DNA from: a virus
Taxonomy: Duplodnaviria > Heunggongvirae > Uroviricota > Caudoviricetes
Reading direction: 5' to 3' (one strand)
DNA length: 39,173 nt
Virus record (IMG/VR): IMGVR_UViG_2563366802_000014
Below the pieces are notes generated by a model. It was not told where the DNA came from, searched no databases, and was given only the letters and a program-made list of their open reading frames with translations. The position numbers were made by a program, and so were the translations under genes. Each line of letters opens with the position of its first letter. Positions within the stretch are counted from its first letter, which is position 1. Positions 1,289 through 39,173 of this stretch are shown here, piece after piece.

Positions 1289-1771
1289 CTATCTGGTCAG
1301 GGTGTCATACTGTTTTTCGCAGACTCTTCCGGCTGCGGCTGCCCGGTCAGCATACTCTGCCAGTTGTCTGTTTCTCTCGAGAGATTTGCTGAGCACGTCG
1401 GCAAGCAAAACTCCGGTGTCTGCGGCTGACGTCCCAGCGCCGACAATGGCGTTATACTGCCTGAGCTGCTCACGGATGGCAAAGAGTTGTTGCTGCAACC
1501 TGCCAGCGCGAGCGGCAGCATCAAGAGCATCATTGCGCGCCTGGTCGATCCTCTGCTGAGCTTCACGTTCATTGGTCGCTTTCTCCTGTTCGTAGTGCTG
1601 ACGAACTCTCTCATCTTCAGCTTTGCGGTCTTCCTTCGCCTGCGCATACCCGGCATCGTACTGGCGACTGCCGTGTATATTCCAGGCAACCACTCCGACG
1701 ATGAACAGAGCAGCAAGCATCAACACAATAAGCATCTGTTTCCAATATGCTTTTACGAATGCCCAGATCAT
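1289..1771 (-). CDS. Spanin inner-membrane subunit (Rz-like i-spanin)
   Basis: N-terminal transmembrane helix (LIVLMLAALFIVGVVAW) then charged coiled-coil body; directly follows endolysin with ATGA start/stop overlap; contains a nested lipoprotein ORF. Confidence 0.75.
   Translation of the reverse strand: MIWAFVKAYWKQMLIVLMLAALFIVGVVAWNIHGSRQYDAGYAQAKEDRKAEDERVRQHYEQEKATNEREAQQRIDQARNDALDAAARAGRLQQQLFAIREQLRQYNAIVGAGTSAADTGVLLADVLSKSLERNRQLAEYADRAAAAGRVCEKQYDTLTR
1297..1533 (-). CDS. Spanin outer-membrane subunit (Rz1-like o-spanin), nested in the i-spanin gene in another frame
   Basis: Internal Met start in the 1297..1716 ORF gives MMLLMLPLALAGC with lipobox LAGC followed by a Pro-rich short body; nested architecture typical of Rz/Rz1. 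Confidence 0.6.
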   Translation of the reverse strand: MMLLMLPLALAGCSNNSLPSVSSSGSITPLSALGRQPQTPEFCLPTCSANLSRETDNWQSMLTGQPQPEESAKNSMTP

Positions 1772-2397
1772 ATAGCCAGCACCTTACTGGCAGTGACGTA
1801 CCGCGCGCGCCGGTCGTCGATGCCGTTCCGGCCACCATTGATAATCAGAGTTACACGTGCAATATCGCCGGTATACTTCATGCATCCTTTGCTGGCAAAG
1901 AACCACGCCGCGCTACGAGCCGCGTATTCGTCCTGCGCCAGCAGTTCAGGACTCTCCAGCAGGTCAACCTTAAGACCGTTTCCACAGTCACGATAGTTAT
2001 TCAAACCGGTAATCTGGATAAGTCCGCGACCACGGTAATTCCAGCCATCACCAGAGGCATTGTTACCCATGCGTTTGCTGTACACCAGATTTGCGATCGC
2101 GCGCTGGCGCTCAAGTGGCAATGGTGGCTCACCAGCACGGCGGCCCAGTGCGTTAGCCTGTCCCTGGGTGAGACGCCCAGCCCGAACGAAGTTAGCCAGT
2201 CCGGTGACGCTGTAGTTGAAATTTTCCTGCAACCGGTTGAAGCCACCAGACTCATGCCCGACCTGAGCAATAAACATTGCCTGATCTTCGGGTTTGCTGA
2301 TACCAAACTCTTTCATCGCAGAAGTTATATGCGAGAACCAGCGAGCGGCCAGCGCCTCGCTAATACCAGCAGCTCGCTGGAATTGTTTAATCTCCAT
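1768..2397 (-). CDS. Endolysin, glycoside hydrolase family 19 (chitinase-like lysozyme)
   Basis: Motifs QVGHESGGF and NYRGRGLIQITG typical of GH19 phage endolysins; start reassigned to internal ATG at 2397 (MEIKQF) with RBS GAGGT upstream; the track ORF extends to 2628. Confidence 0.85.
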   Translation of the reverse strand: MEIKQFQRAAGISEALAARWFSHITSAMKEFGISKPEDQAMFIAQVGHESGGFNRLQENFNYSVTGLANFVRAGRLTQGQANALGRRAGEPPLPLERQRAIANLVYSKRMGNNASGDGWNYRGRGLIQITGLNNYRDCGNGLKVDLLESPELLAQDEYAARSAAWFFASKGCMKYTGDIARVTLIINGGRNGIDDRRARYVTASKVLAI

Positions 2398-2695
2398 GTT
2401 TAGACCTCGATATTTTGAAAATATGAACAACGTTACCGCGTGTTTTAATAACCGCGGCAAGCATGACAGCGTTGATAATGACCTCAGATAAATCCACAGC
2501 CATTGGCGTGCGTAACCAGATTGCATAGACGACACGAACAGGAATACTTGCCGCAGCAACAATAAGGAAATAAGCAAGCCACCCTCCCCATCTTCGATGT
2601 TGAGAGCCGTTACGCCGGAATGTGACAACGCGAATTGCTATGCCAGTACAAATAACTGCATTGGTGATAAGCAAAAAAAACTCATGCGTTACCAT
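2387..2695 (-). CDS. Small membrane protein, holin or antiholin candidate
   Basis: 102 aa with 2-3 predicted hydrophobic helices; immediately upstream of and overlapping the endolysin start. Confidence 0.5.
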   Translation of the reverse strand: MVTHEFFLLITNAVICTGIAIRVVTFRRNGSQHRRWGGWLAYFLIVAAASIPVRVVYAIWLRTPMAVDLSEVIINAVMLAAVIKTRGNVVHIFKISRSKHGD

Positions 2696-3086
2696 CGTCT
2701 TTTCTCCCCGGAATTAACTCGCGTGGATTATCGGAACGGTGATAGAGCCAGATGCCAATACGCACGGCGACAATTGCTGACACGAATGCGCCTGCAGAAA
2801 AAACAATCCCTTTTTCAAAAGAGTCCTGCGTGATGGTAGGGATCAGGCTGGCTATGCCGATAAGAATTGATGCTGCTGGTTTGTAAAAGAGAAGGCCGCA
2901 AAGAAAGCTGATCATCGACAGGAGCACCCGGCGACGGATGGGGTACTCTACTGCAGAGGTAACAAAAATTACCGCCCCAGCCAAAGCCCCTAAAGCAACC
3001 TCCGGAGGGACACCTGCAATAACCGCAGCAAGAGAACTAACACTAAGCCACTGATTTGAAGTTTCATTGGTTAGTTGGAATGACAT
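2682..3086 (-). CDS. Membrane protein, putative holin
   Basis: 134 aa with about 4 hydrophobic segments and charged C-terminus; first gene of the lysis cassette by position. Confidence 0.5.
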   Translation of the reverse strand: MSFQLTNETSNQWLSVSSLAAVIAGVPPEVALGALAGAVIFVTSAVEYPIRRRVLLSMISFLCGLLFYKPAASILIGIASLIPTITQDSFEKGIVFSAGAFVSAIVAVRIGIWLYHRSDNPRELIPGRKDDGNA

Positions 3087-3158
3087 AACGAAACCCGTTT
3101 ATTTGCAAACACCCTGCTTCAGGAAAAGTATACCGCGCAACAACACACCATTTACGGT

Positions 3159-5621
3159 TCAATTCCCTGTTAATTGCAAAACTTGCTCTTCCAGCTTTTT
3201 AACCCTGCGTCTCATCATCGCAGATTCCAGAATCAGAGCCTCTTCATAACGGATACCGTAACATTCACCAGCCTCGACGGCTTCGCGTACCAGAACCTTT
3301 GTCTGTATAAGTGGGTAAACTCCTGCAGAATGCTCTTCTTCCGTCACATCCCTGTATTCTGCCGGGGTCTCATTCCACTTGTCATAACAGATAAATGCCA
3401 GTCGTGACACATCTATGCCTTCATTCTGAAATACACTGATAACATGCTGCGCAACTGCACCAAAGTGCCATCTTGCTCCGTCTTTACCTTTCACTTCGAT
3501 CCTGTCAAGGTACTGGTATGAAACCCATTCCACTCTTTCCCATGCGTCCAGTATTTTCTCATCAATAACCTCTGGAGCAGTCTTGAAACGCGCATCGGAC
3601 AGCACCGTAAACGCTGACTGGGTAAATCCCCCCGACCATGCACGACCAGCCAACCCAAGAGAATAAGTATTCGTTGTCGATGGTGTCATGGCTGAATCAG
3701 AAAACTGTATATATTCTGAATTTCCAGTAGATATTCGAATATTTCCATTTATTAGCGACATAGTGCCTTTAGTATTATCACTATTGAATAATTTCAATTG
3801 CGAACTTATACCGCCTCCCACAGCCAGAGATACATCGCCTTCAGCAAGCATTCTGAATTTATCTGCAGAAACAAGCGTCTGGTTAGCAAGGTTAAAATAT
3901 TTAACCCACCATTCAAAACGCCCTGACATAGTCCCAACGTACTGACCAAGCGCAGGGACGTGAACAACATTGCTATTTGTAGTGCCGTCTATACTGGAAA
4001 TACCAGTCACCGCTGATGCAGAACTCAGAATATTATTTCTGTCACCCGGATGTTTAATTTCAACAAAGTTCCTGATACACCCTTCCTCGAAGGTAACCAC
4101 GCCGGAAGAACTATACATGGGGAATATTGACGCATAATTACTGCGTGCAGCATCTAAGAAACGAATGGTTGTAGATGTCTGCAGATCTCCTGATTCATTT
4201 TTCCCATCACACCCAGTCATTAGAATATTACTGGCAATATTATTATTTCCCTGAACGGTGACGCCGTGCGCCTGCTTTGCGTCCGATTCAGAGTAATCAA
4301 CCAGCACATCCGAAATCAGGTTACCAGTCCCCTTGCCAACAACTACTGCGGCGTATTTTGGGTTGTTAGCCATTACACTGCTAATGATATTATTCGTTGG
4401 GGCAGTTTCCGTCTCAGTTCCATTGTAAACAACGTGCTGACACTCTTCACCAATAACATTGCTGACAATGTTATATTTTGCTGCTGTTTTAAGTTCCACT
4501 GCACCAAACTGAGGATAATTTCTGGCTATCACACCATCAATTAGCGTATTTTGCGATGAATCAAAAAGCACACAACCTGCTTTTTTATTATTTGCGAACC
4601 CTAAATACTCTCCTCTTATATCTCTAACAATGTAACCTGACGGAATACCATTATTCGGATAAGCGATCAAGCTAAATCCTGTTCCTCGCGTATTTGTAAA
4701 TCTGATATTTTTAACCGATACATCATGGCCACCTGAAAATGACACCTGGTGTCCCTGCACACTATCATCTGATTTATTTCCCATAATTGTTAGCGTACTA
4801 AGCATGCCACCATCGGGCATGTTAAAAACCAGATGATTACCATCTCTGTCATACTGTTTTATCGTTCCCCCACCTGTTCCGTACAAGCCACAACGTGAAA
4901 GAGAAACTAAAGATGTATTGAATACCCCTTCCGGAACAAAAACACTGCTAAACGAATGTAATGATTTTGTAAAAGCATCCTTGTTATCATTTAAGATTCC
5001 ATTTTGAGCTCCAAAATCCTTAATGCTGACACCATCACGCATCTTATCCTGGAACGTTCTGTATACCGCTCCAGAACCATACTGAATAAACCAACCAAAA
5101 CCACCAATAACTCCGGCGATTGCAGCATCGACATAATTACGCATTGAGCGATTATTTACAGCGTCCTGCTCAAGTGATGGATCGGCAAGGTTAGATATTC
5201 TGTTTTGCTTTGCATCGTAATATTTTGCAAGCAAAGATGGTTTCATCAATGCACGTCTGAACCACCCAAAACATCGCTGGATCAGCATCGTCAGGTAGTC
5301 AAATGCATCCTCATGAACTTCGGGGAAAAATTTTCCCTGATTGCGAAGATCAGTCTCCTGCACCACATCAAGCACACGCTCTATCGTGATTCGCCAGCCA
5401 GCAGCAAGCGGCGACGGAAGAACCACTGCACCGCCACTATAAGTTCCCGCCCCTGTTACCGTATAACCAGCATCCAGCACTAGTTTTGTAACGTTACCGT
5501 TAAGGTCAGACACCTGAACAACCAGGTCGGATTTTTTGAAAATACGGAAGGTATACGGAAATGATGTCGTAACGCCGTTACCTGTGTATTCGTTGTGGTC
5601 AACTTCGGTTGAGACCGTCAT
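3159..5621 (-). CDS. Tailspike / tail fiber, probable polysaccharide depolymerase with C-terminal S74-type intramolecular chaperone domain
   Basis: 820 aa; N-terminal particle-binding-like segment; central Gly/Asn-rich repeats suggestive of beta-helix; C-terminal motif LSDARFKTAPE matching the S-D-x-R-x-K autoproteolytic chaperone signature; RBS GGAG upstream. Confidence 0.75.
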   Translation of the reverse strand: MTVSTEVDHNEYTGNGVTTSFPYTFRIFKKSDLVVQVSDLNGNVTKLVLDAGYTVTGAGTYSGGAVVLPSPLAAGWRITIERVLDVVQETDLRNQGKFFPEVHEDAFDYLTMLIQRCFGWFRRALMKPSLLAKYYDAKQNRISNLADPSLEQDAVNNRSMRNYVDAAIAGVIGGFGWFIQYGSGAVYRTFQDKMRDGVSIKDFGAQNGILNDNKDAFTKSLHSFSSVFVPEGVFNTSLVSLSRCGLYGTGGGTIKQYDRDGNHLVFNMPDGGMLSTLTIMGNKSDDSVQGHQVSFSGGHDVSVKNIRFTNTRGTGFSLIAYPNNGIPSGYIVRDIRGEYLGFANNKKAGCVLFDSSQNTLIDGVIARNYPQFGAVELKTAAKYNIVSNVIGEECQHVVYNGTETETAPTNNIISSVMANNPKYAAVVVGKGTGNLISDVLVDYSESDAKQAHGVTVQGNNNIASNILMTGCDGKNESGDLQTSTTIRFLDAARSNYASIFPMYSSSGVVTFEEGCIRNFVEIKHPGDRNNILSSASAVTGISSIDGTTNSNVVHVPALGQYVGTMSGRFEWWVKYFNLANQTLVSADKFRMLAEGDVSLAVGGGISSQLKLFNSDNTKGTMSLINGNIRISTGNSEYIQFSDSAMTPSTTNTYSLGLAGRAWSGGFTQSAFTVLSDARFKTAPEVIDEKILDAWERVEWVSYQYLDRIEVKGKDGARWHFGAVAQHVISVFQNEGIDVSRLAFICYDKWNETPAEYRDVTEEEHSAGVYPLIQTKVLVREAVEAGECYGIRYEEALILESAMMRRRVKKLEEQVLQLTGN

Positions 5622-5725
5622 GTTAAATCTCCAGATAGTCGCAGCACCCGTTGCGCCGCATATCTGGTTATTCTATTACCCAAAAAACCATATATGGATA
5701 GAAAGACTGTGAATATGAATAGATA

Positions 5726-5740
5726 TTACCTTTCAGGTAA
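5726..5740. promoter_or_regulatory. Operator-like palindrome TTACCtttcaGGTAA
   Basis: Perfect TTACC-N5-GGTAA inverted repeat about 40 bp upstream of the LexA box. Confidence 0.6.
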
Positions 5741-5777
5741 TTTTCAAAACGTGCTGGATAGCAAACAAATTATTTGC

Positions 5778-5797
5778 TACTGTATAAATATACAGTT
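5778..5797. promoter_or_regulatory. LexA (SOS) box TACTGTATAAATATACAGTT
   Basis: CTGT-N8-ACAG core at 5780-5795 with AT-rich spacer, close match to the enterobacterial LexA consensus, about 20 bp upstream of the 5818 start codon. Confidence 0.8.
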
Positions 5798-5817
5798 ATT
5801 GCATGGAGAAGATTAAG

Positions 5818-6075
5818 ATGCAGCAGTATCACTATCCACTGGAAGAGGGATTTACCGAAAGGATTCACACGCCGGGAGGCGTCAGGTCACTGGTGGAGGG
5901 ATCGCACTTGATGAAATTACTCCGGGATCTCGATAAGGATGGATTTAATGTCGATGGCCCACTTGCCGAACTGACTGCACTGATTAACTACGTCACCAGC
6001 TCACAGATGTCTATGCGGGATCTGCAAACACATCTCGACTATTGTGCCGAACAATTACGAAAACAAACCAGATAA
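5818..6075 (+). CDS. Small antirepressor-domain protein, SOS-controlled candidate antirepressor
   Basis: 85 aa from ATG 5818 (RBS GGAG 9 nt upstream; alternative start 5803); clearly similar to the C-terminal part of the adjacent 231-aa Bro-N protein (shared pattern LLxxL..DG..V.G..AELT ... RD.QTH..Y); preceded by LexA box. Confidence 0.6.
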   Translation: MQQYHYPLEEGFTERIHTPGGVRSLVEGSHLMKLLRDLDKDGFNVDGPLAELTALINYVTSSQMSMRDLQTHLDYCAEQLRKQTR

Positions 6076-6106
6076 GGTTTGTAATTACCAAGTGGAGTGC
6101 TTATAT

Positions 6107-6121
6107 TTACCTTTGCGGTAA
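6107..6121. promoter_or_regulatory. Operator-like palindrome TTACCtttgcGGTAA
   Basis: Perfect copy of the motif, lying in the loop between 7-bp inverted repeats GGAGTGC / GCACTCC. Confidence 0.55.
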
Positions 6122-6212
6122 ATTTACATCGCACTCCTCTTGTGCCATAGTAATCGGGCACTGGCAAAATCCAGTGCCGGGATTGGCGTCCCGGATTACT
6201 AAAAGGCGCATT

Positions 6213-6233
6213 CACCGCGCAAGCGGTTTTTTT
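6213..6233 (+). terminator. Rho-independent terminator after the small antirepressor-domain gene
   Basis: CCGC-GCAA-GCGG hairpin followed by seven T; preceded by a compact multi-hairpin element at 6150-6199. Confidence 0.5.
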
Positions 6234-6390
6234 ATGCGTATAGCACGGCCACATTCGTATTATGGTGGGCTGTGTGGGGGCACCGAAAGGTGCGCCGGGT
6301 CCTTTTAGCCGGTTACGCCAACCCTGCACAGTTCACCACCAACCGATTGGCGTCGGTAGTGGTGATTAACCAGACTAAAAGGTAACCACT

Positions 6391-7086
6391 ATGACAGCTA
6401 CAAAAAGCACGTCCATTTTTTCTTTCGAATCTCAAGCCGATATACGGGTAATCGTCATTAATGGTGAGCCATGGTTTATCGCTTCAGATGTTTGTCGGGC
6501 TATAGGCATAGCAAACCATCGAGATGCTGTTCGAAAACTTGATGATGATGAGAAGGGCGTCGCTTCAACCGACACCCCTGGCGGTGAGCAAGAATCGATC
6601 ATTATCTCCGAGTCAGGCCTCTACACACTGATCCTCCGCTGCCGCGATGCGGTGACACCAGGCACTATCCCCTACCGCTTTCGCAAATGGGTTACAGGTG
6701 AGGTTCTTCCTCAGATCCGCCGCACCGGAAGTTACATTAAAAACTCGCTCCCGCAGGAAGAACGCATAAAGATGGTTGCCGACCAGGTAGCCAACGCCAC
6801 GGCGTCAGCAGTAATGCAGGCGATGAAGATAGAGAACAAAACCTACAGCGCCCCGCTGAAGCCCGGCTACCGCAGCCTGATTCACTCGCCGTCTGGTGTT
6901 CTCGGCCTGACGGAAAACTCACTGCTGATGAATCTGCTGAACCAGTTACAGGAAGACGGGCACGACGTATCGGGCGCGGCGGCGGAGCTGACCACCATGT
7001 TTTGCTACATCGTTGGTGTGAGCAAGTGCCTGCGTGATATCCAGACGCACGCGGAGTACATCAACGACAAGGCTGGGTTCTTCTGA
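6391..7086 (+). CDS. Antirepressor, Bro-N domain protein
   Basis: N-terminal segment FSFESQADIRVIVINGEPWFIASDVCRAIG matches the Bro-N / antirepressor domain; C-terminal domain paralogous to the 85-aa protein. Confidence 0.75.
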   Translation: MTATKSTSIFSFESQADIRVIVINGEPWFIASDVCRAIGIANHRDAVRKLDDDEKGVASTDTPGGEQESIIISESGLYTLILRCRDAVTPGTIPYRFRKWVTGEVLPQIRRTGSYIKNSLPQEERIKMVADQVANATASAVMQAMKIENKTYSAPLKPGYRSLIHSPSGVLGLTENSLLMNLLNQLQEDGHDVSGAAAELTTMFCYIVGVSKCLRDIQTHAEYINDKAGFF

Positions 7087-7153
7087 CGGGCGGCGGCACA
7101 GGGACGTGCCTTTAAAATAATCATTGGCGATGTGATGTAGATTCGCGTAATAT

Positions 7154-7168
7154 TACCTTACGGGTAAA
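7154..7168. promoter_or_regulatory. Operator-like palindrome TTACCttacgGGTAA
   Basis: Perfect copy about 20 bp upstream of a -10-like TATATT and the RBS GAGGTG of the 7206 gene. Confidence 0.6.
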
Positions 7169-7205
7169 CCCCGTTTAATGGCGTTTCTATATTATGAGGT
7201 GATGT

Positions 7206-7841
7206 ATGCCACAACAACTGCTGAATCCGGCAAAGGTTACTGAAGTTTTCGCTCATCTGAACGAAACTCCAGACAACCGCGCCCTGTATTCAGAGTTAGT
7301 GAACGGCAACGATGTCACATCTGATGTCAAAGGCGTTTCTCTGGCTCCTGGATACCGCGTTGTCCGTGTAGACGATCGTAAGAAAGGCGAGATTCCACAG
7401 GCGCACTTCGAACTGGCATTGATAAATGACCTCACCGAAGAGGTAGTGTATTACAATCGTGTCATTATCCAACCTGACAGCTATCTTAACTGCCGACCTG
7501 TCACGCAGATATTGGTATGGAGAACCCAGAAGCCTAAGCATCGTGCTGTGCTTCATGATTTCGCCGGCATCATCTTCATGAACTACCTCTTGGAACGGTA
7601 CGATATCATCGTGTCAGATCGCAACCAGACTCATGAAGGCATGTCGTTCTGGCAGGCTCGCATGTATGACGCACTGGAACTTGGCCTCCACCTCTATGGT
7701 TACGACATGATGACATGCGAGCTGATAGAGATGAATAACGAGGAAGAGCTTGAGAAAGGTGAAACCTGGTTGTGGGGTGATGCGGAAAACTTCCAAAACA
7801 GATTGGCCATAATTTCAAAGCATAAGCTGCCAATAAAATAG
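7206..7841 (+). CDS. Hypothetical protein (211 aa), accessory gene with own operator and terminator
   Basis: ORF from track; strong RBS GAGGTG; acidic soluble protein with no motif I recognise. Confidence 0.6.
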   Translation: MPQQLLNPAKVTEVFAHLNETPDNRALYSELVNGNDVTSDVKGVSLAPGYRVVRVDDRKKGEIPQAHFELALINDLTEEVVYYNRVIIQPDSYLNCRPVTQILVWRTQKPKHRAVLHDFAGIIFMNYLLERYDIIVSDRNQTHEGMSFWQARMYDALELGLHLYGYDMMTCELIEMNNEEELEKGETWLWGDAENFQNRLAIISKHKLPIK

Positions 7842-7847
7842 TTCTTT

Positions 7848-7872
7848 AAGCCCGCGCCGCGGGCTTTTTTGT
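7848..7872 (+). terminator. Rho-independent terminator
   Basis: GC-rich hairpin GCCCGCG..CGCGGGC followed by six T, just after the stop codon of the 7206..7841 gene. Confidence 0.7.
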
Positions 7873-7908
7873 GTCTGCGGATTCCCGCCCTGGCGGCGGT
7901 GGCATTCG

Positions 7909-7934
7909 TTAAAAACAAGGCCGCGAAAGCGGCC
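7909..7934 (-). terminator. Rho-independent terminator (minus strand)
   Basis: Hairpin GGCCGC-GAAA-GCGGCC with GNRA-type loop, followed on the minus strand by TTGTTTTTAA; convergent with the plus-strand terminator. Confidence 0.65.
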
Positions 7935-7935
7935 T

Positions 7936-7947
7936 GTGACATGTCAC
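7936..7947. repeat. 12-bp perfect palindrome GTGACATGTCAC (copy 1 of 3)
   Basis: Overlaps the TGA stop codon of the 98-aa membrane protein gene and abuts the terminator. Confidence 0.8.
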
Positions 7948-8240
7948 GTTCCTTTTCTGAATGATAGCCATTCGAAAAATGATGACATTCCACCGCAGAC
8001 AATAGCAAAGATGATCCCACCAAAGAAGAGAAGGCCAGCCTGCCACCACTCCCACCGCCATACATCCACAGCGCCAACCATACCAACAATCGCTCCAACA
8101 AATGGAATATAGCTCACGATGAAAGCAATGGGGGCTGCAATTATCCAGTGCAATCCCCACCATGATTCAAGCCCAGCCATAATTGCTGCCAACTGAAAAA
8201 GACCAACGACGATATAAACAATGAATCCTATAGCTTGCAT
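7944..8240 (-). CDS. Small integral membrane protein (98 aa)
   Basis: ORF from track; 3-4 hydrophobic helices rich in G/A/I/W; RBS AGGTGA upstream; follows the internal virion protein genes. Confidence 0.6.
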   Translation of the reverse strand: MQAIGFIVYIVVGLFQLAAIMAGLESWWGLHWIIAAPIAFIVSYIPFVGAIVGMVGAVDVWRWEWWQAGLLFFGGIIFAIVCGGMSSFFEWLSFRKGT

Positions 8241-8252
8241 GTAGTCACCTAT

Positions 8253-8426
8253 TTACCCAGTAAAAATCAGAGGCCTCCCCTCAATAAGGCTTGCAACAAG
8301 AACTACTCCCTGCACAACAAAGATGAACCAGCAAATAGCTTGAGTCTGAGGGTTAAGAAAATATTTGTAGCGGTCAATAAATAACAGCCCACCAGAAATT
8401 ATCACACTCAAAATAATTAAAAACAC
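8253..8426 (-). CDS. Very small hydrophobic protein (57 aa, GTG start), tentative
   Basis: Hand-translated minus-strand ORF below the 60-aa track cutoff; RBS AAGGAAG 4 nt upstream of GTG; stop 12 nt before the next start. Confidence 0.35.
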   Translation of the reverse strand: MFLIILSVIISGGLLFIDRYKYFLNPQTQAICWFIFVVQGVVLVASLIEGRPLIFTG

Positions 8427-8435
8427 AACACTTCC

Positions 8436-10910
8436 TTATTGCGGAGTGACATCCTGAGGTCGCCACCAGTATGTCTGGTTAAACTCTTTCTTCGAACGTT
8501 GCTCCATTTTACGCAAATAGCCTGGTGAAAAATACTCCTGCATCTGGTTAAAGATCATGTGATCAAGAGCTGCCTTCAAGTACCAGAGATTCGCACCTGG
8601 CATCAGCCCTTTCCCAAGTTTCACCAGATCACCACCAGTCTGCTCGTTCTTCCCTTCCACAGCATTTAATGGTATGCCCTGAGCTATCTTCACTACGTCA
8701 TCAATCAGGCCAGCTACCGGGCCAAGCATCGACGCCAGCGCGCCGCTTCCGTACCTAGTGTGATCTGACAATAAAAAGTCACCGTAAAGGCCAAGACCAC
8801 CACCTTTCAGTAGAGCACCAAGCCAAAATTTAGCAGCATCTTCTCCTGTCATCTCGCGAGGATTACGACCAGACGCAAGGTCGTTAAGTTGCTGCGACAA
8901 AGCGCCAAGAATGGTCGTACTGGCAATAAACGTCGCAATATATGCCGCACGCCCACCAGCAGACGGCATACCCATAGCGCGTGACCAGTGACGCATAACC
9001 ACCGAGATAGGGAACGATTTAAACAGGAAAACACTTCTCGTTAATTCACCTTTCCATGTTCCACGCTGAATACCAGAACCGGTTATCAGTTGCTCACGTG
9101 CTCCCGGTGTAATAACAGCCATATCAACTTCTTCAGTTACGGCACCGAGCAGTTTACGCATTGCCTCAAATTTCACGCGTTCAGGCTCACCAAGATGTTT
9201 AACTGCTGAATCAGGGATACGCATAATGCTTTCCGGTGTCAGCATCGTATTATTACCGTTCCCCCAGTCCTCCTGTTGCGCCAGCTTCCATACGCTCCAG
9301 TCTGTGTCAGTAATCCCTTTGCTTTTCAGGATACGAAAATCAGAGTCATCGAGGCTACGAAGGTCTGGTGTCCGTGACACTACTTCTCCCAGGCTTCCCA
9401 TCATGGTTACGCCATAGGCGCGCTTGTGCGCATCTGACCATGCTGTAAGCCCACTGGCACGCATTACCGCCGTTGCTGCCCAACGAGACACTGACGGCCC
9501 CATATTATCCATCGCCCAGCGGTTAACGCTGCCAAGTAGAGATTCCATTGCCAGACCAGCGCGGCGCGCCCGCGCAAGTTCTGTACGGTTCGTTGGGTCC
9601 ATAGCTTCAAGCTGGTTGCGGAATAACTGGTTCATTGGAAGGTTGGTCACCTTCGCAGACAGATACATGGTTCCAAGATCAGAGAACGATGATAGCAACG
9701 CGGATCCGAGTCTGCTGGCAACCAGCCAGTTGCGGATATTGTCAGACCATCGCGCGATGTGCGGATTCGCTACAGGCTGTGTCTTTCCGGAAATAAAGTT
9801 GTACAGATTCTCTGTGTTGTTCGCCAGCCGCTCGACTTTACCGGTTTTACTCGGGTTAGCTGTTGCCGTTTCTGCCTTAACCTGATCAAGAAGGGAGCGG
9901 AAAACATGATCGGGGTTTGGACCATATGTTTCCACCAGAGCAATATCTTTACTGATACCTTCCAGGTGACCGACCATGATTTCCCATAGAGAGCGATCGC
10001 CATAAAGTTGTTGATATTGGAGATAGGAATCAGCATCTTTGAAATGTATCTGTCGTGATGCATTACCACGGTTAGCACGTGCGCCGGAAATTCGCATTCC
10101 GGTATCAGTAAGCTTATTCAGCCCACCAGTAGCGATCGTGTTATAAGCCTCTCCAAGAAATGCAGACAACTCGGCACCGTTCATCAGTTGTCCATCGGCT
10201 CGGGTATAATATTTGCGATCCAGCTTACCTATAACATCGTTAACCCACTTATCCTTTGATACCGCCCCAACCTTTTCCATAGAATGATGTTGAGGGATCC
10301 CCCAGTTTTCGAGATAGCCAATGTCCCCACCAGCATCATTAAACCGGCGGCGCAGCAGCTCTGTAACTTCTCTCCACGCCTTAGCACCTTTTCTTGCTTT
10401 AGCATTGCCAGTATTTTGCCCCCGCATTTCATATACCAGGTCACGTACGCCCGCTTCATCTTCAAACAGACCAAAAAAGCGAGGATCAACTGCTTCGAAT
10501 GCCTCCTGCAATTGACTCAATGCATAATCACGGGTGGCTTTTGTTCTGGATTCAACAGAGAGGAAATTAGATTTACCGTCTGCATTAAAAGCTATAGTAC
10601 GGTTAAGAGCGCCAAGTTTCCCATCAGCCCCTTGATAGCTATTGATAAATTTATCCAATCTCTGACGCGCGGCTATAGTGAGAGCCACACGACGTTTCTT
10701 TAATGCCGCTTCTCGCTGTAATTCTTCAGATGCCAATTGTGCTGCTCGATATAGCCGCTCTGATTCGGAAAGTTGTCGCCACGACATCGGGTCATCACGA
10801 GCAATGGAGCGCATATTTCGATAAATGCGGTCTTCAATGTTCTGTATTTCTCGCGCCGTTAACATGCGCTGCGCCGCCTGCTGAACCGCCTGTATACATT
10901 CCTGTCTCAT
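8436..10910 (-). CDS. Large internal virion / ejection protein (824 aa)
   Basis: Large ORF in the run of virion genes between the tail-tube-like genes and the tailspike; role inferred from size and position only. Confidence 0.55.
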   Translation of the reverse strand: MRQECIQAVQQAAQRMLTAREIQNIEDRIYRNMRSIARDDPMSWRQLSESERLYRAAQLASEELQREAALKKRRVALTIAARQRLDKFINSYQGADGKLGALNRTIAFNADGKSNFLSVESRTKATRDYALSQLQEAFEAVDPRFFGLFEDEAGVRDLVYEMRGQNTGNAKARKGAKAWREVTELLRRRFNDAGGDIGYLENWGIPQHHSMEKVGAVSKDKWVNDVIGKLDRKYYTRADGQLMNGAELSAFLGEAYNTIATGGLNKLTDTGMRISGARANRGNASRQIHFKDADSYLQYQQLYGDRSLWEIMVGHLEGISKDIALVETYGPNPDHVFRSLLDQVKAETATANPSKTGKVERLANNTENLYNFISGKTQPVANPHIARWSDNIRNWLVASRLGSALLSSFSDLGTMYLSAKVTNLPMNQLFRNQLEAMDPTNRTELARARRAGLAMESLLGSVNRWAMDNMGPSVSRWAATAVMRASGLTAWSDAHKRAYGVTMMGSLGEVVSRTPDLRSLDDSDFRILKSKGITDTDWSVWKLAQQEDWGNGNNTMLTPESIMRIPDSAVKHLGEPERVKFEAMRKLLGAVTEEVDMAVITPGAREQLITGSGIQRGTWKGELTRSVFLFKSFPISVVMRHWSRAMGMPSAGGRAAYIATFIASTTILGALSQQLNDLASGRNPREMTGEDAAKFWLGALLKGGGLGLYGDFLLSDHTRYGSGALASMLGPVAGLIDDVVKIAQGIPLNAVEGKNEQTGGDLVKLGKGLMPGANLWYLKAALDHMIFNQMQEYFSPGYLRKMEQRSKKEFNQTYWWRPQDVTPQ

Positions 10911-24848: not shown

Positions 24849-24925
24849 GTGGCATTAGCTCAGTCGGACAGAGCAACCGCCTTCTAAGCGGTTGGTCGCA
24901 GGTTCGAATCCTGCATGCCACGCCA
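24849..24925 (+). tRNA. tRNA-Arg (anticodon UCU)
   Basis: Hand-folded cloverleaf: 7-bp acceptor stem GTGGCAT/ATGCCAC, D-arm GCTC..GAGC, anticodon stem ACCGC/GCGGT with loop CTTCTAA (anticodon TCT), T-arm GCAGG-TTCGAAT-CCTGC, discriminator G and encoded CCA. Confidence 0.85.
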
Positions 24926-37922: not shown

Positions 37923-39173
37923 TTATTCTCCCGCCATCCACTTCTCAAACTTCGACGGGGAGAACGGAATCAGATCCGTATGCTCCCCGTCAATCCAGGA
38001 ATCAATCATATCTGCCCACTGCTGCAACATGTAGGCGCGCTGTCTGGCGTATTCCGCTTTGTTATATACGGCGCGCACACCTTTCTGCTCATGTGCCAGA
38101 GCCTTTTCAATCCAGTCTGAAGGATAACCAGCCTCATGCAACAACGTACTGGCTGTACGGCGCATATCGTGTACGGTGAAGTCCTGAATATGCTCACCAT
38201 CTTCATTTATTATTTTCACCGTTCTGTCGATCAGTGAGTTCAACGCGGCATTAGATAATGGCTTCCGGAAATTGTAACGACCAGGAACCAGGTATTCACT
38301 TCCACCAGCGCACATCTGCAACCCAACCAATATATCCTGTGCTTGTTTAGGCAGGTAAATAACGTGCGCCCGGCTTCCCTTCATGCGGTCTGAAGGAATT
38401 GTCCATGTCCATTTTTTAAAATCTATTTCATCCCACGTTGCATTGGTGAATTCGCCTTTACGAACCATAGTGATAAGCACCAGCTTTAAAGCCATTTTCA
38501 TAGTGCCCATAGCACCAATGGCATCCAGCGTGCGGAAGAACAGACCAATTTCTTCTGGTGTCAGTGTTCGCTCTCGTGGTTTAAATATGGCGATAGACGA
38601 AGGTTTAATGTCAGCCGCAGGATTAAACAAACCATGACCACGGTCATTGGCATGACGGTATACGCTGCTGATGATCTCCCTGGCCTGCACTGCTGTTGCC
38701 AGGCCGCCGCGTTCGACAATCCGGTCACACAAATCACGAACCATCGATGTGGTAATTTCAGTCATCATTTTGTTGCCAAGAACCGGAAGTATGTCACGGT
38801 CGATCACCGCCTGCTTCATTGCGCGGGTACTGTCAGCCAGGATGACATGTTTCATATAACTGTCGGTATGTACCGCAAACGTCTCGGCACCACGAATCTT
38901 TTTGATACCGTCACGTTTAGCCGCAGCCGGTGACTGGCCTGCTTTAAGCAGCTTCTTTGCAGCAATCAGTTCTTCTCGCGCTTCTGCCAGGCTGATACCG
39001 TCACGCCCATACTGCCCGATTACCAGTGTTTCGCGGCGACCGTTGATACGGTAGTCATAGCGAAACGAGACCGTGCCTGACGTAAGCACAGCTACATACA
39101 GCCCGTCACGATCGGAGACCTTGTACAGTTTGTCCTGCGGCTTGAGGTTTTTTAATTTTGTATCGGTAAGCAC
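37923..39173 (-). CDS. int: Tyrosine integrase (P4-type); N-terminus at or just beyond the window edge
   Basis: C-terminal catalytic region HDMRRTASTLLHEAGYPSDWIEKALAH and a downstream Tyr in VYNKAEY; N-terminal arm-binding-like segment; ORF runs to the window end with GTG at the edge, so the true start may lie outside. Confidence 0.85.
   Translation of the reverse strand: MLTDTKLKNLKPQDKLYKVSDRDGLYVAVLTSGTVSFRYDYRINGRRETLVIGQYGRDGISLAEAREELIAAKKLLKAGQSPAAAKRDGIKKIRGAETFAVHTDSYMKHVILADSTRAMKQAVIDRDILPVLGNKMMTEITTSMVRDLCDRIVERGGLATAVQAREIISSVYRHANDRGHGLFNPAADIKPSSIAIFKPRERTLTPEEIGLFFRTLDAIGAMGTMKMALKLVLITMVRKGEFTNATWDEIDFKKWTWTIPSDRMKGSRAHVIYLPKQAQDILVGLQMCAGGSEYLVPGRYNFRKPLSNAALNSLIDRTVKIINEDGEHIQDFTVHDMRRTASTLLHEAGYPSDWIEKALAHEQKGVRAVYNKAEYARQRAYMLQQWADMIDSWIDGEHTDLIPFSPSKFEKWMAGE

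Follow-up and report, generated by a model that had tools for sequence, protein, structure and literature searches.

The window, a stretch of 39,173 nucleotides of viral DNA, carries on its minus strand a gene that in all likelihood encodes a receptor-destroying K5-lyase tailspike of a phiV10/epsilon15-like prophage, equipped with a chaperone domain that removes itself. The protein consists of three modules: a virion anchor (residues 1 to about 190), a lyase β-helix continued by a trimeric stalk (residues 199–674) and a chaperone (residues 675–820).

Gene and modular architecture

Positions 3159–5621 of the minus strand form a single open reading frame with an ATG start codon and a GGAG motif about 8 nt upstream; the earlier note had left the strand unstated. 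In strain E5, a RefSeq CDS (WP_016245481.1) occupies the same coordinates and the gene is 100% identical to that of the window; the coordinates of the E5 prophage part from those of the window after about 7 kb. The 820-residue protein is matched by PHROG 14895, ‘tail spike protein’ (E = 2e-224), and no NCBIfam model or family was found for it. Its RefSeq name is the generic ‘tail fiber domain-containing protein’ for each of the 68 complete genomes that carry the gene. The modules and sites discussed below are located as follows.

3159–5621, minus strand: complete tailspike gene, 820 residues, 89.7 kDa precursor, stop codon at 3159–3161 (from the ORF list, the RefSeq CDS, PHROG and the computed mass)
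5052–5621, minus strand: N-terminal virion-anchor module of the epsilon15/phiV10 type, residues 1 to about 190, with a mosaic junction at about residues 185–212
4092–5027, minus strand: predicted right-handed parallel β-helix lyase domain, residues 199–510 (from the alignment with KflA 2x3h, AF2, Foldseek and GC content)
4425–4508, minus strand: putative catalytic-site stretch F372...E376-L-K378...H396...Y399, within YPQFGAVELK...CQHVVYNG
3600–4091, minus strand: putative C-terminal trimerisation stalk (interdigitated or triple β-helix region), residues 511–674, from the C-terminal part of 2x3h
3162–3599, minus strand: C-terminal intramolecular chaperone (Peptidase_S74) domain, residues 675–820, predicted to be released as a 16.9 kDa fragment
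3597–3599 and 3582–3584, minus strand: codons of Ser675 and Lys680, respectively, in the chaperone domain

Plus-strand open reading frames of 77–92 residues also lie within the tailspike gene; they were dismissed as unsupported and antisense to a strongly conserved CDS. A scan of positions 2600–6500 for promoters and terminators gave counts that are not above those of shuffled sequence (8 versus 7.7 and 5 versus 3.3, respectively).

The central region resembles the K5 lyase KflA

Homology and structure prediction agree in making the central region a right-handed β-helix. Residues 199–675 align with the crystal structure of KflA, the lyase of coliphage K5A (PDB entry 2x3h; E = 1e-185), and residues 192–814 match the 843-residue tailspike chain 9vvr (E = 2e-226). 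The sequence of KflA (phage K5A, Y10025) is 57% identical over tailspike residues 201–817, and the identity to all of the lytic-phage K5 lyases is 54–57%. The AF2 model has a pLDDT mostly above 90 over residues 200–500, with regular short strands, and its top Foldseek match is again 2x3h (E = 9e-48, TM 0.74). The Gly/Asn richness that the earlier note had taken as consistent with a central β-helix is borne out by the composition, with 11% Gly, 9% Asn and 10% Ser in residues 199–510 compared with 5.5% Gly and 2% Asn in the chaperone. The GC content of the lyase domain is 0.36–0.40, compared with a mean of 0.49 for the window. Two Pfam profiles, Beta_helix (19.3 bits versus 25.9) and Phage_T7_tail, score below threshold on the tailspike and provide weak hints only.

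Phe372, Glu376, Lys378, His396 and Tyr399 align with Phe202, Glu206, Lys208, His226 and Tyr229 of KflA, the Phe, Glu, Lys and Tyr all being identical. Phe202, Glu206, Lys208 and Tyr229 of KflA were reportedly proposed as active-site residues by Thompson and coworkers in 2010, and these residue types agree with the KflA sequence at the four positions. Long blocks near the presumed active site are identical to KflA (NYPQFGAVELK, YNIVSNVIG and NNPKYAAVV.GKG..NLISDVLVDYS). From this homology, the enzyme is very probably a β-eliminating lyase of the Escherichia coli K5 capsule (heparosan) rather than an O-antigen hydrolase. A depolymerase setting either O-antigen or capsule specificity had been suggested before; the homology with KflA favours a surface-polysaccharide depolymerase directed against the K5 capsule, and O-antigen specificity was rejected in favour of it.

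Residues 511–674 correspond to the C-terminal part of 2x3h, the deposited chain of which stops at the residue aligned to Ser675. The confidence of the monomeric AF2 model is low at residues 569–595 and 656–672, as expected for a segment that folds only in the trimer.

The C-terminal chaperone and its predicted self-cleavage

The motif LSDARFKTAPE, which the earlier note had placed in the C-terminal 150 or so residues, spans residues 674–684 (window positions 3570–3602), with SDARFK starting at residue 675, 146 residues from the C-terminus. The S74-type chaperone domain suggested from this motif was recovered by Pfam: Peptidase_S74 (PF13884) matches residues 675–735 with profile positions 1–57 of 58 (E = 1.4e-13, 51.3 bits for a gathering cutoff of 22), and Ser675 and Lys680 stand at the catalytic positions. 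The match lies well outside what chance would give, and the absence of an S74 match that the earlier note had listed as refuting its reading did not occur. Chaperone chains in the PDB match as well, namely those of endoNF (PDB entry 3gw6; E = 8e-21) and of the GA-1 neck appendage (PDB entry 3gud; E = 2e-20). The AF2 model of residues 681–820 has a pLDDT of 72–87 per ten-residue block, and the chaperone model superimposes on 3gud_B with a TM of 0.85 and an r.m.s.d. of 2.5 Å over 135 columns.

In endoNF, the aligned counterparts of Ser675 and Lys680 are the catalytic Ser (the position of S911A) and Lys916; in the GA-1 domain they are the first residue (a Ser) and the Lys, and in the T5 chaperone they are again the catalytic Ser and Lys. 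Among 44 homologues, Lys680, Arg717, His719 and Gly721 are invariant and Ser675 and Asp676 are at least 90% conserved. The residue preceding the cleavage Ser differs among the homologues (Val, Thr, Leu or Ile), so that Leu674 is normal at this place. The homologous chaperones of endoNF (phage K1F), T5 pb1 (PDB entry 4uw8) and the GA-1 neck appendage likewise follow a trimeric β-stalk and have in common with that of the window the Ser, the Lys at +5, an ARxHFG core and a terminal coiled-coil helix, whereas the catalytic or receptor-binding parts of endoNF and T5 are unrelated (a sialidase β-propeller and the T5 fibre tip, respectively). The local motif also differs: the Ser-Asp-x-Arg-x-Lys signature invoked by the earlier note is present in the window's tailspike (SDARFK) but is not universal, the Ser of endoNF being followed by NGERK in the alignment. 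What is conserved for catalysis is the Ser together with a Lys five residues on.

In T5 and endoNF, an upstream Arg of the neighbouring subunit (Arg1250 and Arg897, respectively) senses the correct folding of the trimer. The window's tailspike has an Arg at position 660, 15 residues before Ser675, which is identical in KflA and is one position off Arg897 of endoNF in the HMMER alignment. T5 pb1 is cleaved between Thr1263 and Ser1264, i.e. N-terminally of the Ser. By analogy, self-cleavage of the chaperone is predicted between Leu674 and Ser675; for this cut, the computed masses are 72.8 kDa for the mature protein ending at Leu674 and 16.9 kDa for the fragment, from the precursor of 89.7 kDa. 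The Ser–Lys mechanism of chaperone autocleavage has been described (PMC4690869).

The N-terminal anchor and the prophage

The anchor module recurs, at 90–96% identity, in the first 203–225 or so residues of numerous tailspikes of E. coli prophages, the catalytic modules of which are unrelated. Its identity is 70% to the tailspike N-terminus of Salmonella epsilon15 and 68% to that of O157 typing phage 10 (phiV10-type). It is also matched by PDB entry 28lx (Dpo31 residues 1–183; E = 6e-30), and the AF2 confidence is low across it. Phage-record tailspikes that have only this N-terminal module in common with the window's protein are annotated ‘eliminase’, a label that implies the same N-terminus for ElmA.

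The tailspike gene is the last structural gene; it follows the tail genes and precedes the lysis cassette, which was delineated with Pfam and RefSeq.

1289–3086, minus strand: lysis cassette directly downstream of the tailspike gene, with two holins (Phage_holin_8 and Phage_holin_3_7), a GH19 endolysin (Glyco_hydro_19) and a spanin-like protein (DUF2514)

The prophage is phiV10-like and is inserted between yfgI and guaA. Its genome of about 38 kb is apparently complete, from the integrase to the lysis cassette, with intact portal, capsid, terminase and tail genes. Window positions 8400–30000 (21.6 kb, mostly virion and packaging genes) show 97–98% identity over 85–91% of their length to phiV10, ZX5 and PAS61 (97.7% over 85% for phiV10). 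The sequence assigns the gene to a temperate phiV10/epsilon15-like podovirus as its tailspike. Tailspikes of epsilon15/phiV10-like phages (Uetakevirus) have an anchor that is 65–70% identical and the same gene position before the lysis cassette, yet they carry O-antigen-specific modules (O157 in the case of phiV10), in place of which the window's tailspike has the putative K5 lyase module of lower GC content.

Relation to KflA and ElmA

KflA has the same β-helix lyase domain and C-terminal stalk, and a chaperone with an S-D-A-R-x-K site. It is, however, only 632 residues long, and its short N-terminus attaches to an adapter protein in an SP6-like lytic phage (PMC6872550), whereas the tailspike of the window belongs to a temperate phage, begins with the epsilon15-type anchor of about 190 residues and has a chaperone into which 17 residues are inserted (at 750–777 or so).

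The protein is very probably ElmA or an allele of it. ElmA, the length of which we take to be 820 residues as in the window's protein, is in industrial use for sizing heparosan in heparin manufacture. The name ElmA was absent from the source names of the 40 cluster members and from those returned by a search of 5.8 billion proteins; the relatives are named ‘tail fiber domain-containing protein’, ‘phage tail protein’ or, for lytic phages, ‘K5 lyase’. Like the window's gene, that of ElmA, an N-acetylheparosan lyase, is chromosomal and prophage-borne, and a published list includes ElmA as a K5 lyase that a prophage contributes to E. coli K5 (PMC3594737). ElmA has a C-terminal chaperone/autocleavage domain, as does the window's tailspike; the K5 lyases, ‘e.g. 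ElmA’, count among the four original families of this domain (PMC8326128). ElmA has been employed to cut heparosan into oligosaccharides (PMC12834895, PMC9595387). The K5 lyase tailspike family (KflA/ElmA), with its β-helix and self-cleaving chaperone, is already known, and its description and use go back decades. The earlier note had not recognised this long-known family.

Distribution among E. coli genomes

We surveyed 5426 complete E. coli genomes for the lyase module at megablast sensitivity. It is present in 68 of them, none of which shows less than 99% conservation of the gene, and no second chromosomal variant of the module was found in the 5426 genomes at this sensitivity. An 820-residue variant with 89% identity (P0016) also exists. 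The kfiC gene occurs in 36 of the 68 lysogens (53%) compared with 233 of the 5358 other genomes (4.3%), which corresponds to an odds ratio of 24.7 (p = 7e-30, clonality not being accounted for). The lysogenic strain 4/0, for example, has kfiD, kfiC and kfiA, and a gene without a name that separates the latter two is taken to be kfiB. The association of the lysogens with the K5 locus fits K5-encapsulated hosts. The other 32 lysogens (47%) are without kfiC and include a listed ST131 strain, AR_0055 and K1 strains of ST1193. The kfiC-negative lysogens that we examined are K1 strains of ST1193, a lineage with a K5 ancestor in which the capsule switched from K5 to K1 (PMC11488385); for these checked strains, the lack of kfiC is explained by this switch.

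Proposed mechanism and alternative explanations

In the mechanism that we propose, the 89.7 kDa precursor would trimerise and the chaperone domain (residues 675–820) would template the folding of the interdigitated C-terminal stalk. Once the trimer is correct, Ser675, activated by Lys680, would cleave the Leu674–Ser675 bond and the 16.9 kDa chaperone would depart, leaving a stable trimer of 72.8 kDa per subunit. The N-terminal module (residues 1 to about 190) would dock this trimer on the phage tail, and the β-helix (residues 199–510) would bind the K5 capsule (heparosan, -4GlcA-β1,4-GlcNAc-α1-) and cut it by β-elimination, allowing the virion to tunnel to the outer membrane.

An identity of only 54–57% to the lytic-phage K5 lyases leaves some room for the same fold and chaperone to serve a different capsular or O-antigen polysaccharide: at 57%, the value for KflA as the only relative with a characterised structure, the substrate could in principle differ, modest sequence changes are known to alter tailspike specificity, and 47% of the lysogens are without kfiC. 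We nevertheless consider such a drift in specificity to be very unlikely, as the similarity is collinear across the entire β-helix, with the long identical blocks near the presumed active site, and the K5 locus is 25-fold enriched among the lysogens. Moreover, the kfiC-negative lysogens that were checked belong to a lineage with a K5 ancestor (PMC11488385), and the literature records for E. coli K5 a chromosomal K5 lyase that is carried by a prophage (PMC3594737). It is even harder to believe that the tailspike is a glycoside hydrolase of the P22, HK620 or GH28 type and not a lyase. Hydrolase tailspikes do have the β-helix fold in common with it; the weaker Foldseek matches include HK620, CBA120 and polygalacturonase structures (E of about 1e-6, 12–14% identity); and PF12708 modules (‘glycosyl hydrolase family 28-related’ at NCBI) occur in sister prophage tailspikes whose N-terminus is the same. 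The match to the K5 lyases, at 57–59% identity, is however 40 orders of magnitude better than that to any hydrolase, and PF12708 was not detected by the Pfam search in the 820-residue tailspike.

We may also wonder whether the prophage is a defective remnant in which the gene survives as a host ‘eliminase’, used by the cell to trim or shed its K5 capsule, and not as part of a working virion. ElmA, the ‘eliminase’ of Legoux and colleagues (1996), is said to have come to light as a cellular enzyme of an E. coli K5 strain. The conservation of the gene in all 68 genomes could be read in the same way, as could its persistence in K1 strains, where it is useless for re-infecting kin. On the other hand, the phiV10-like genome is apparently complete, its 21.6 kb stretch is nearly identical to isolated plaque-forming phages, and the virion anchor is intact and closely resembles those of other prophage tailspikes, which makes a defective remnant highly improbable; virion and host roles are in any case not mutually exclusive. 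The reading that we prefer is that of a virion tailspike acting on the K5 capsule.

Implications

In ST1193, the prophage appears to have outlived the change from a K5 to a K1 capsule, and it may have survived further switches. One could imagine that K1 lysogens release virions or free lyase that are harmless to their kin and hit K5 competitors, so that the ‘stranded’ prophage would be a weapon or a colonisation factor and not a mere fossil; unsulfated heparan sulfate domains in the host mucosa might be a further substrate of the lyase. This idea, for which the mismatch between the tailspike and the host capsule is the sole support, is speculative and rather unlikely. For annotation, a domain-aware procedure would mend both the ‘eliminase’ label wrongly given to unrelated tailspikes and the generic RefSeq name. 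More broadly, the specificity of a tailspike can record the former capsule type of a lineage, as in ST1193, which may help to reconstruct capsule switches and to pick capsule-targeting phages or depolymerases.

A tailspike gene in a phiV10/epsilon15-like prophage

1-1071: chromosomal genes yfgH and yfgI, at the start of the window
1289-3086, minus strand: lysis cassette (DUF2514 spanin-like protein, GH19 endolysin and two holins), followed by the tailspike gene
3159-5621, minus strand: tailspike gene, a single long ORF (820 aa) that starts with ATG and is preceded by GGAG at about 8 nt
3570-3602, minus strand: motif LSDARFKTAPE, 146 residues from the C-terminus of the tailspike
After the tailspike gene: 2.8 kb accessory block of oppositely oriented genes, including one for a BRO-N/Ant protein
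6391-7086, plus strand: BRO-N/antirepressor-like gene
Past the accessory block: tail, core, capsid, portal and terminase genes, then replication and recombination genes
37923-39173: integrase gene

The integrase gene adjoins guaA in complete genomes. Positions 8400-30000 (21.6 kb, mostly virion and packaging genes) are 97-98% identical over 85-91% of their length to phages phiV10, vB_EcoP_ZX5, PAS61 and phiv142-3. Together with the gene content, this identity indicates that the window is essentially one complete phiV10/epsilon15-like prophage, and the gene at 3159-5621 is its tailspike gene (PHROGs tail spike protein, phrog_14895, E=2e-224). A RefSeq CDS of strain E5 has the same coordinates as this ORF and the genes are 100% identical. 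Despite this, a shift of about 284 nt separates the two prophages downstream of the accessory block (window 7000-8700; tail gene at 8436 versus 8720 in E5, L003), and the window thus comes from a different lysogen or prophage variant.

Within the 2.8 kb block that separates the tailspike gene from the tail genes, a 90-aa ORF (5803-6075, plus strand) and the BRO-N/antirepressor-like gene both lie antisense to the structural operon. The ORF product is a duplicated C-terminal module of its BRO-N/antirepressor-like neighbour, with 44% identity (E=1e-17) to the last 78 residues of that protein. The portal/small ORF region is separated from the terminase genes by a tRNA-Arg gene (anticodon TCT; 24849-24925, plus strand), which is also annotated in related O157 typing phages. 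The GC content in 1 kb windows is 0.41-0.44 across 3001-5000, compared with about 0.49-0.52 elsewhere in the prophage.

An anchor module joined to a K5 lyase module

BLAST comparison of the tailspike with 134 retrieved homologues shows a clean mosaic of an N-terminal anchor module and a K5 lyase module. Up to about residue 203-225, the sequence is shared at 90-96% identity with many tailspikes of E. coli prophages whose sequences are otherwise unrelated, with PF12708, peptidase G2, GDSL-type and other modules following the shared N-terminus. Over residues 193-818 the identity is 54-57% to lytic-phage K5 lyases, in which the N-terminal part comes in at least eight lengths (632, 635, 640, 755, 778, 784, 843 and 1012 aa); the junction falls at about residues 185-212. 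The N-terminal module is the anchor by which epsilon15-like podoviruses attach their tailspike to the virion: identity is 70% to the N-terminus of the epsilon15 tailspike and 68% to that of a phiV10-type phage, and BPP-1-like and many other podoviruses match more weakly. By codon, the GC content is 0.49 in the first 100 and 0.36-0.40 in codons 201-400 (0.49 for the window), and this low GC fits horizontal acquisition of the receptor-binding module, joined at about residues 185-212.

The earlier note had proposed a polysaccharide depolymerase with a Gly/Asn-rich central β-helix, without giving the strand. Gly, Asn and Ser are indeed enriched in the central part, and an AlphaFold2 model built from a 44-sequence alignment has pLDDT values mostly above 90 over residues 200-500, with short regular strands as in a β-helix. 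The activity can be narrowed. In a PDB sequence search, residues 199-675 match KflA, the K5 lyase tailspike of coliphage K5A (PDB entry 2x3h; E=1e-185), and a tailspike chain of 843 aa (PDB entry 9vvr) aligns with residues 192-814 (E=2e-226). The alignment with the phage K5 KflA product (GenBank Y10025) is collinear over residues 201-817 (57% identity) apart from a single insertion of 17 residues, which lies in the chaperone domain. Foldseek also places 2x3h first in the PDB (E=9e-48, TM-score 0.74 on the target). The hydrolase tailspikes HK620 and CBA120 match only at E of about 1e-6, with 12-14% identity. The KflA sequence match and the Foldseek ranking together argue strongly for a K5-type polysaccharide lyase module, rather than a generic depolymerase or a hydrolase.

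KflA is a trimeric β-helical tailspike that cuts heparosan, [-4GlcA-β1,4-GlcNAc-α1-]n, by β-elimination (PMC3594737, PMC5380687, PMC8822698). The KflA sequence has F, E, K and Y at positions 202, 206, 208 and 229. The active site proposed by Thompson and coworkers in 2010 reportedly includes Phe202, Glu206, Lys208 and Tyr229. All four are conserved in the tailspike as F372, E376, K378 and Y399, in the block where the alignment is most conserved, and are candidate catalytic residues.

The chaperone domain and predicted self-cleavage

An S74-type chaperone motif had been placed in the C-terminal 150 or so residues, and the profile search bears this out: Peptidase_S74 (PF13884, 'chaperone of endosialidase') matches residues 675-735, almost the entire profile, with E=1.4e-13 and 51.3 bits, above the gathering cutoff of 22. 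At the sequence level, chance can be ruled out for this match. LSDARFKTAPE spans residues 674-684, as SDARFK starts at residue 675. The proposed Ser-Asp-x-Arg-x-Lys signature is thus present, but it is a common variant and not a rule, endosialidase endoNF having Ser followed by NGERK.

The PDB sequence search also pairs the C-terminus with the chaperone domains of endoNF (PDB entry 3gw6), the GA-1 neck appendage (3gud) and the T5 L-shaped fibre (4uw8). AlphaFold2 models this domain with reasonable confidence, and the model superposes on 3gud with a TM-score of 0.85 and an r.m.s.d. of 2.5 Å. In the alignment, Ser675 and Lys680 fall on the catalytic Ser and Lys of endoNF, of which the Ser is mutated to Ala in 3gw6. 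They also fall on the first residue and the Lys of the GA-1 domain, whose crystal structure is that of the released fragment with the N-terminus SDERHK. Across 44 homologues Lys680, Arg717, His719 and Gly721 are invariant, and Ser675 and Asp676 are at least 90% conserved. In T5 pb1 the bond between Thr1263 and Ser1264 is cut, the Ser departing with the chaperone; it is activated by a Lys five residues downstream, and an Arg of a neighbouring chain ties cleavage to correct trimer folding (PMC4690869). By analogy, the tailspike would be cut between Leu674 and Ser675 into fragments of 72.8 and 16.9 kDa. The residue preceding the Ser varies among homologues (Val 28, Thr 19, Leu 15, Ile 4), so Leu674 is unremarkable. 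Arg660, a candidate sensor, is the same in KflA and lies one alignment column from endoNF Arg897.

Relationship to ElmA

Membership of the KflA/ElmA family is secure. In E. coli K5, ElmA is listed as a prophage-encoded K5 lyase (PMC3594737). It is routinely used to cleave heparosan into oligosaccharides (PMC12834895, PMC9595387, PMC9427770) and represents the K5 lyases among the four families in which the autocleaving chaperone domain was first found (PMC8326128). Our tailspike is very probably ElmA or an allele, since it is chromosomal and prophage-borne, since no other lyase variant turned up in 5426 complete E. coli genomes at megablast sensitivity and since phage tailspikes with only its N-terminal module in common have inherited the product name 'eliminase'. 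The lengths agree as well, ElmA being 820 aa.

The name ElmA seems to have spread by way of the anchor module, not the catalytic one. Escherichia phage EC.W1-9 (L007:2501-4375; judged anchor-only from its absence among wide-coverage matches) and Salmonella virus PAT1 carry the 'eliminase' annotation while sharing only the anchor of about 200 residues. The real lyase is named only 'tail fiber domain-containing protein' in RefSeq, and NCBIfam holds no model for the lyase tailspike.

The lyase and the host capsule

To reside in a lineage as a prophage, a temperate phage must have adsorbed to it. Of 5426 complete E. coli genomes, 68 have the lyase module, each time at least 99% identical. In one lysogen, strain 4/0, region 2 of the kps locus (L005:13518-20431) holds the K5 genes kfiD, kfiC, an unnamed gene taken to be kfiB, and kfiA. 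We counted the places matched per genome by a chimeric probe of 1201 nt of lyase (window 3700-4900) and 801 nt of kfiC: 36 genomes have both, 32 the lyase only, 233 kfiC only and 5125 neither. kfiC is thus found in 53% of lysogens versus 4.3% of other genomes (odds ratio 24.7, Fisher p=7e-30, clonal kinship ignored).

Among the lysogens without kfiC are the ST1193 strains MCJCHV-1, MS10858, MS8320, MS8324 and 09-02E. In MCJCHV-1, region 2 is of the K1 (neu) type and occupies the same kps site, with the same flanking island genes (L006:7858-23855). A published ST1193 capsule table gives K1 for these five strains and K5 for MS10711, in strain-by-strain agreement with our kfiC probe, and the same paper documents a K5-to-K1 switch through recombination across which prophages were conserved (PMC11488385). 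The kfiC-negative lysogens that we checked, which are ST1193 strains (a listed ST131 strain, for example, falls outside this set), are therefore descendants of K5 ancestors, and the prophage tailspike preserves the ancestral capsule type. Virions of the K1 lysogens no longer match the capsule of their own host. That this mismatch is functional, the tailspike serving as a weapon against K5 competitors or acting on host heparan sulfate, strikes us as improbable.

The earlier note was right about the gene and its motif, and its interpretation is supported. The tailspike is a protein of an already known kind and very probably an already named one. What is new is small: the database names for this family are generic or misleading, and a K5-specific tailspike persists in K1 descendants.
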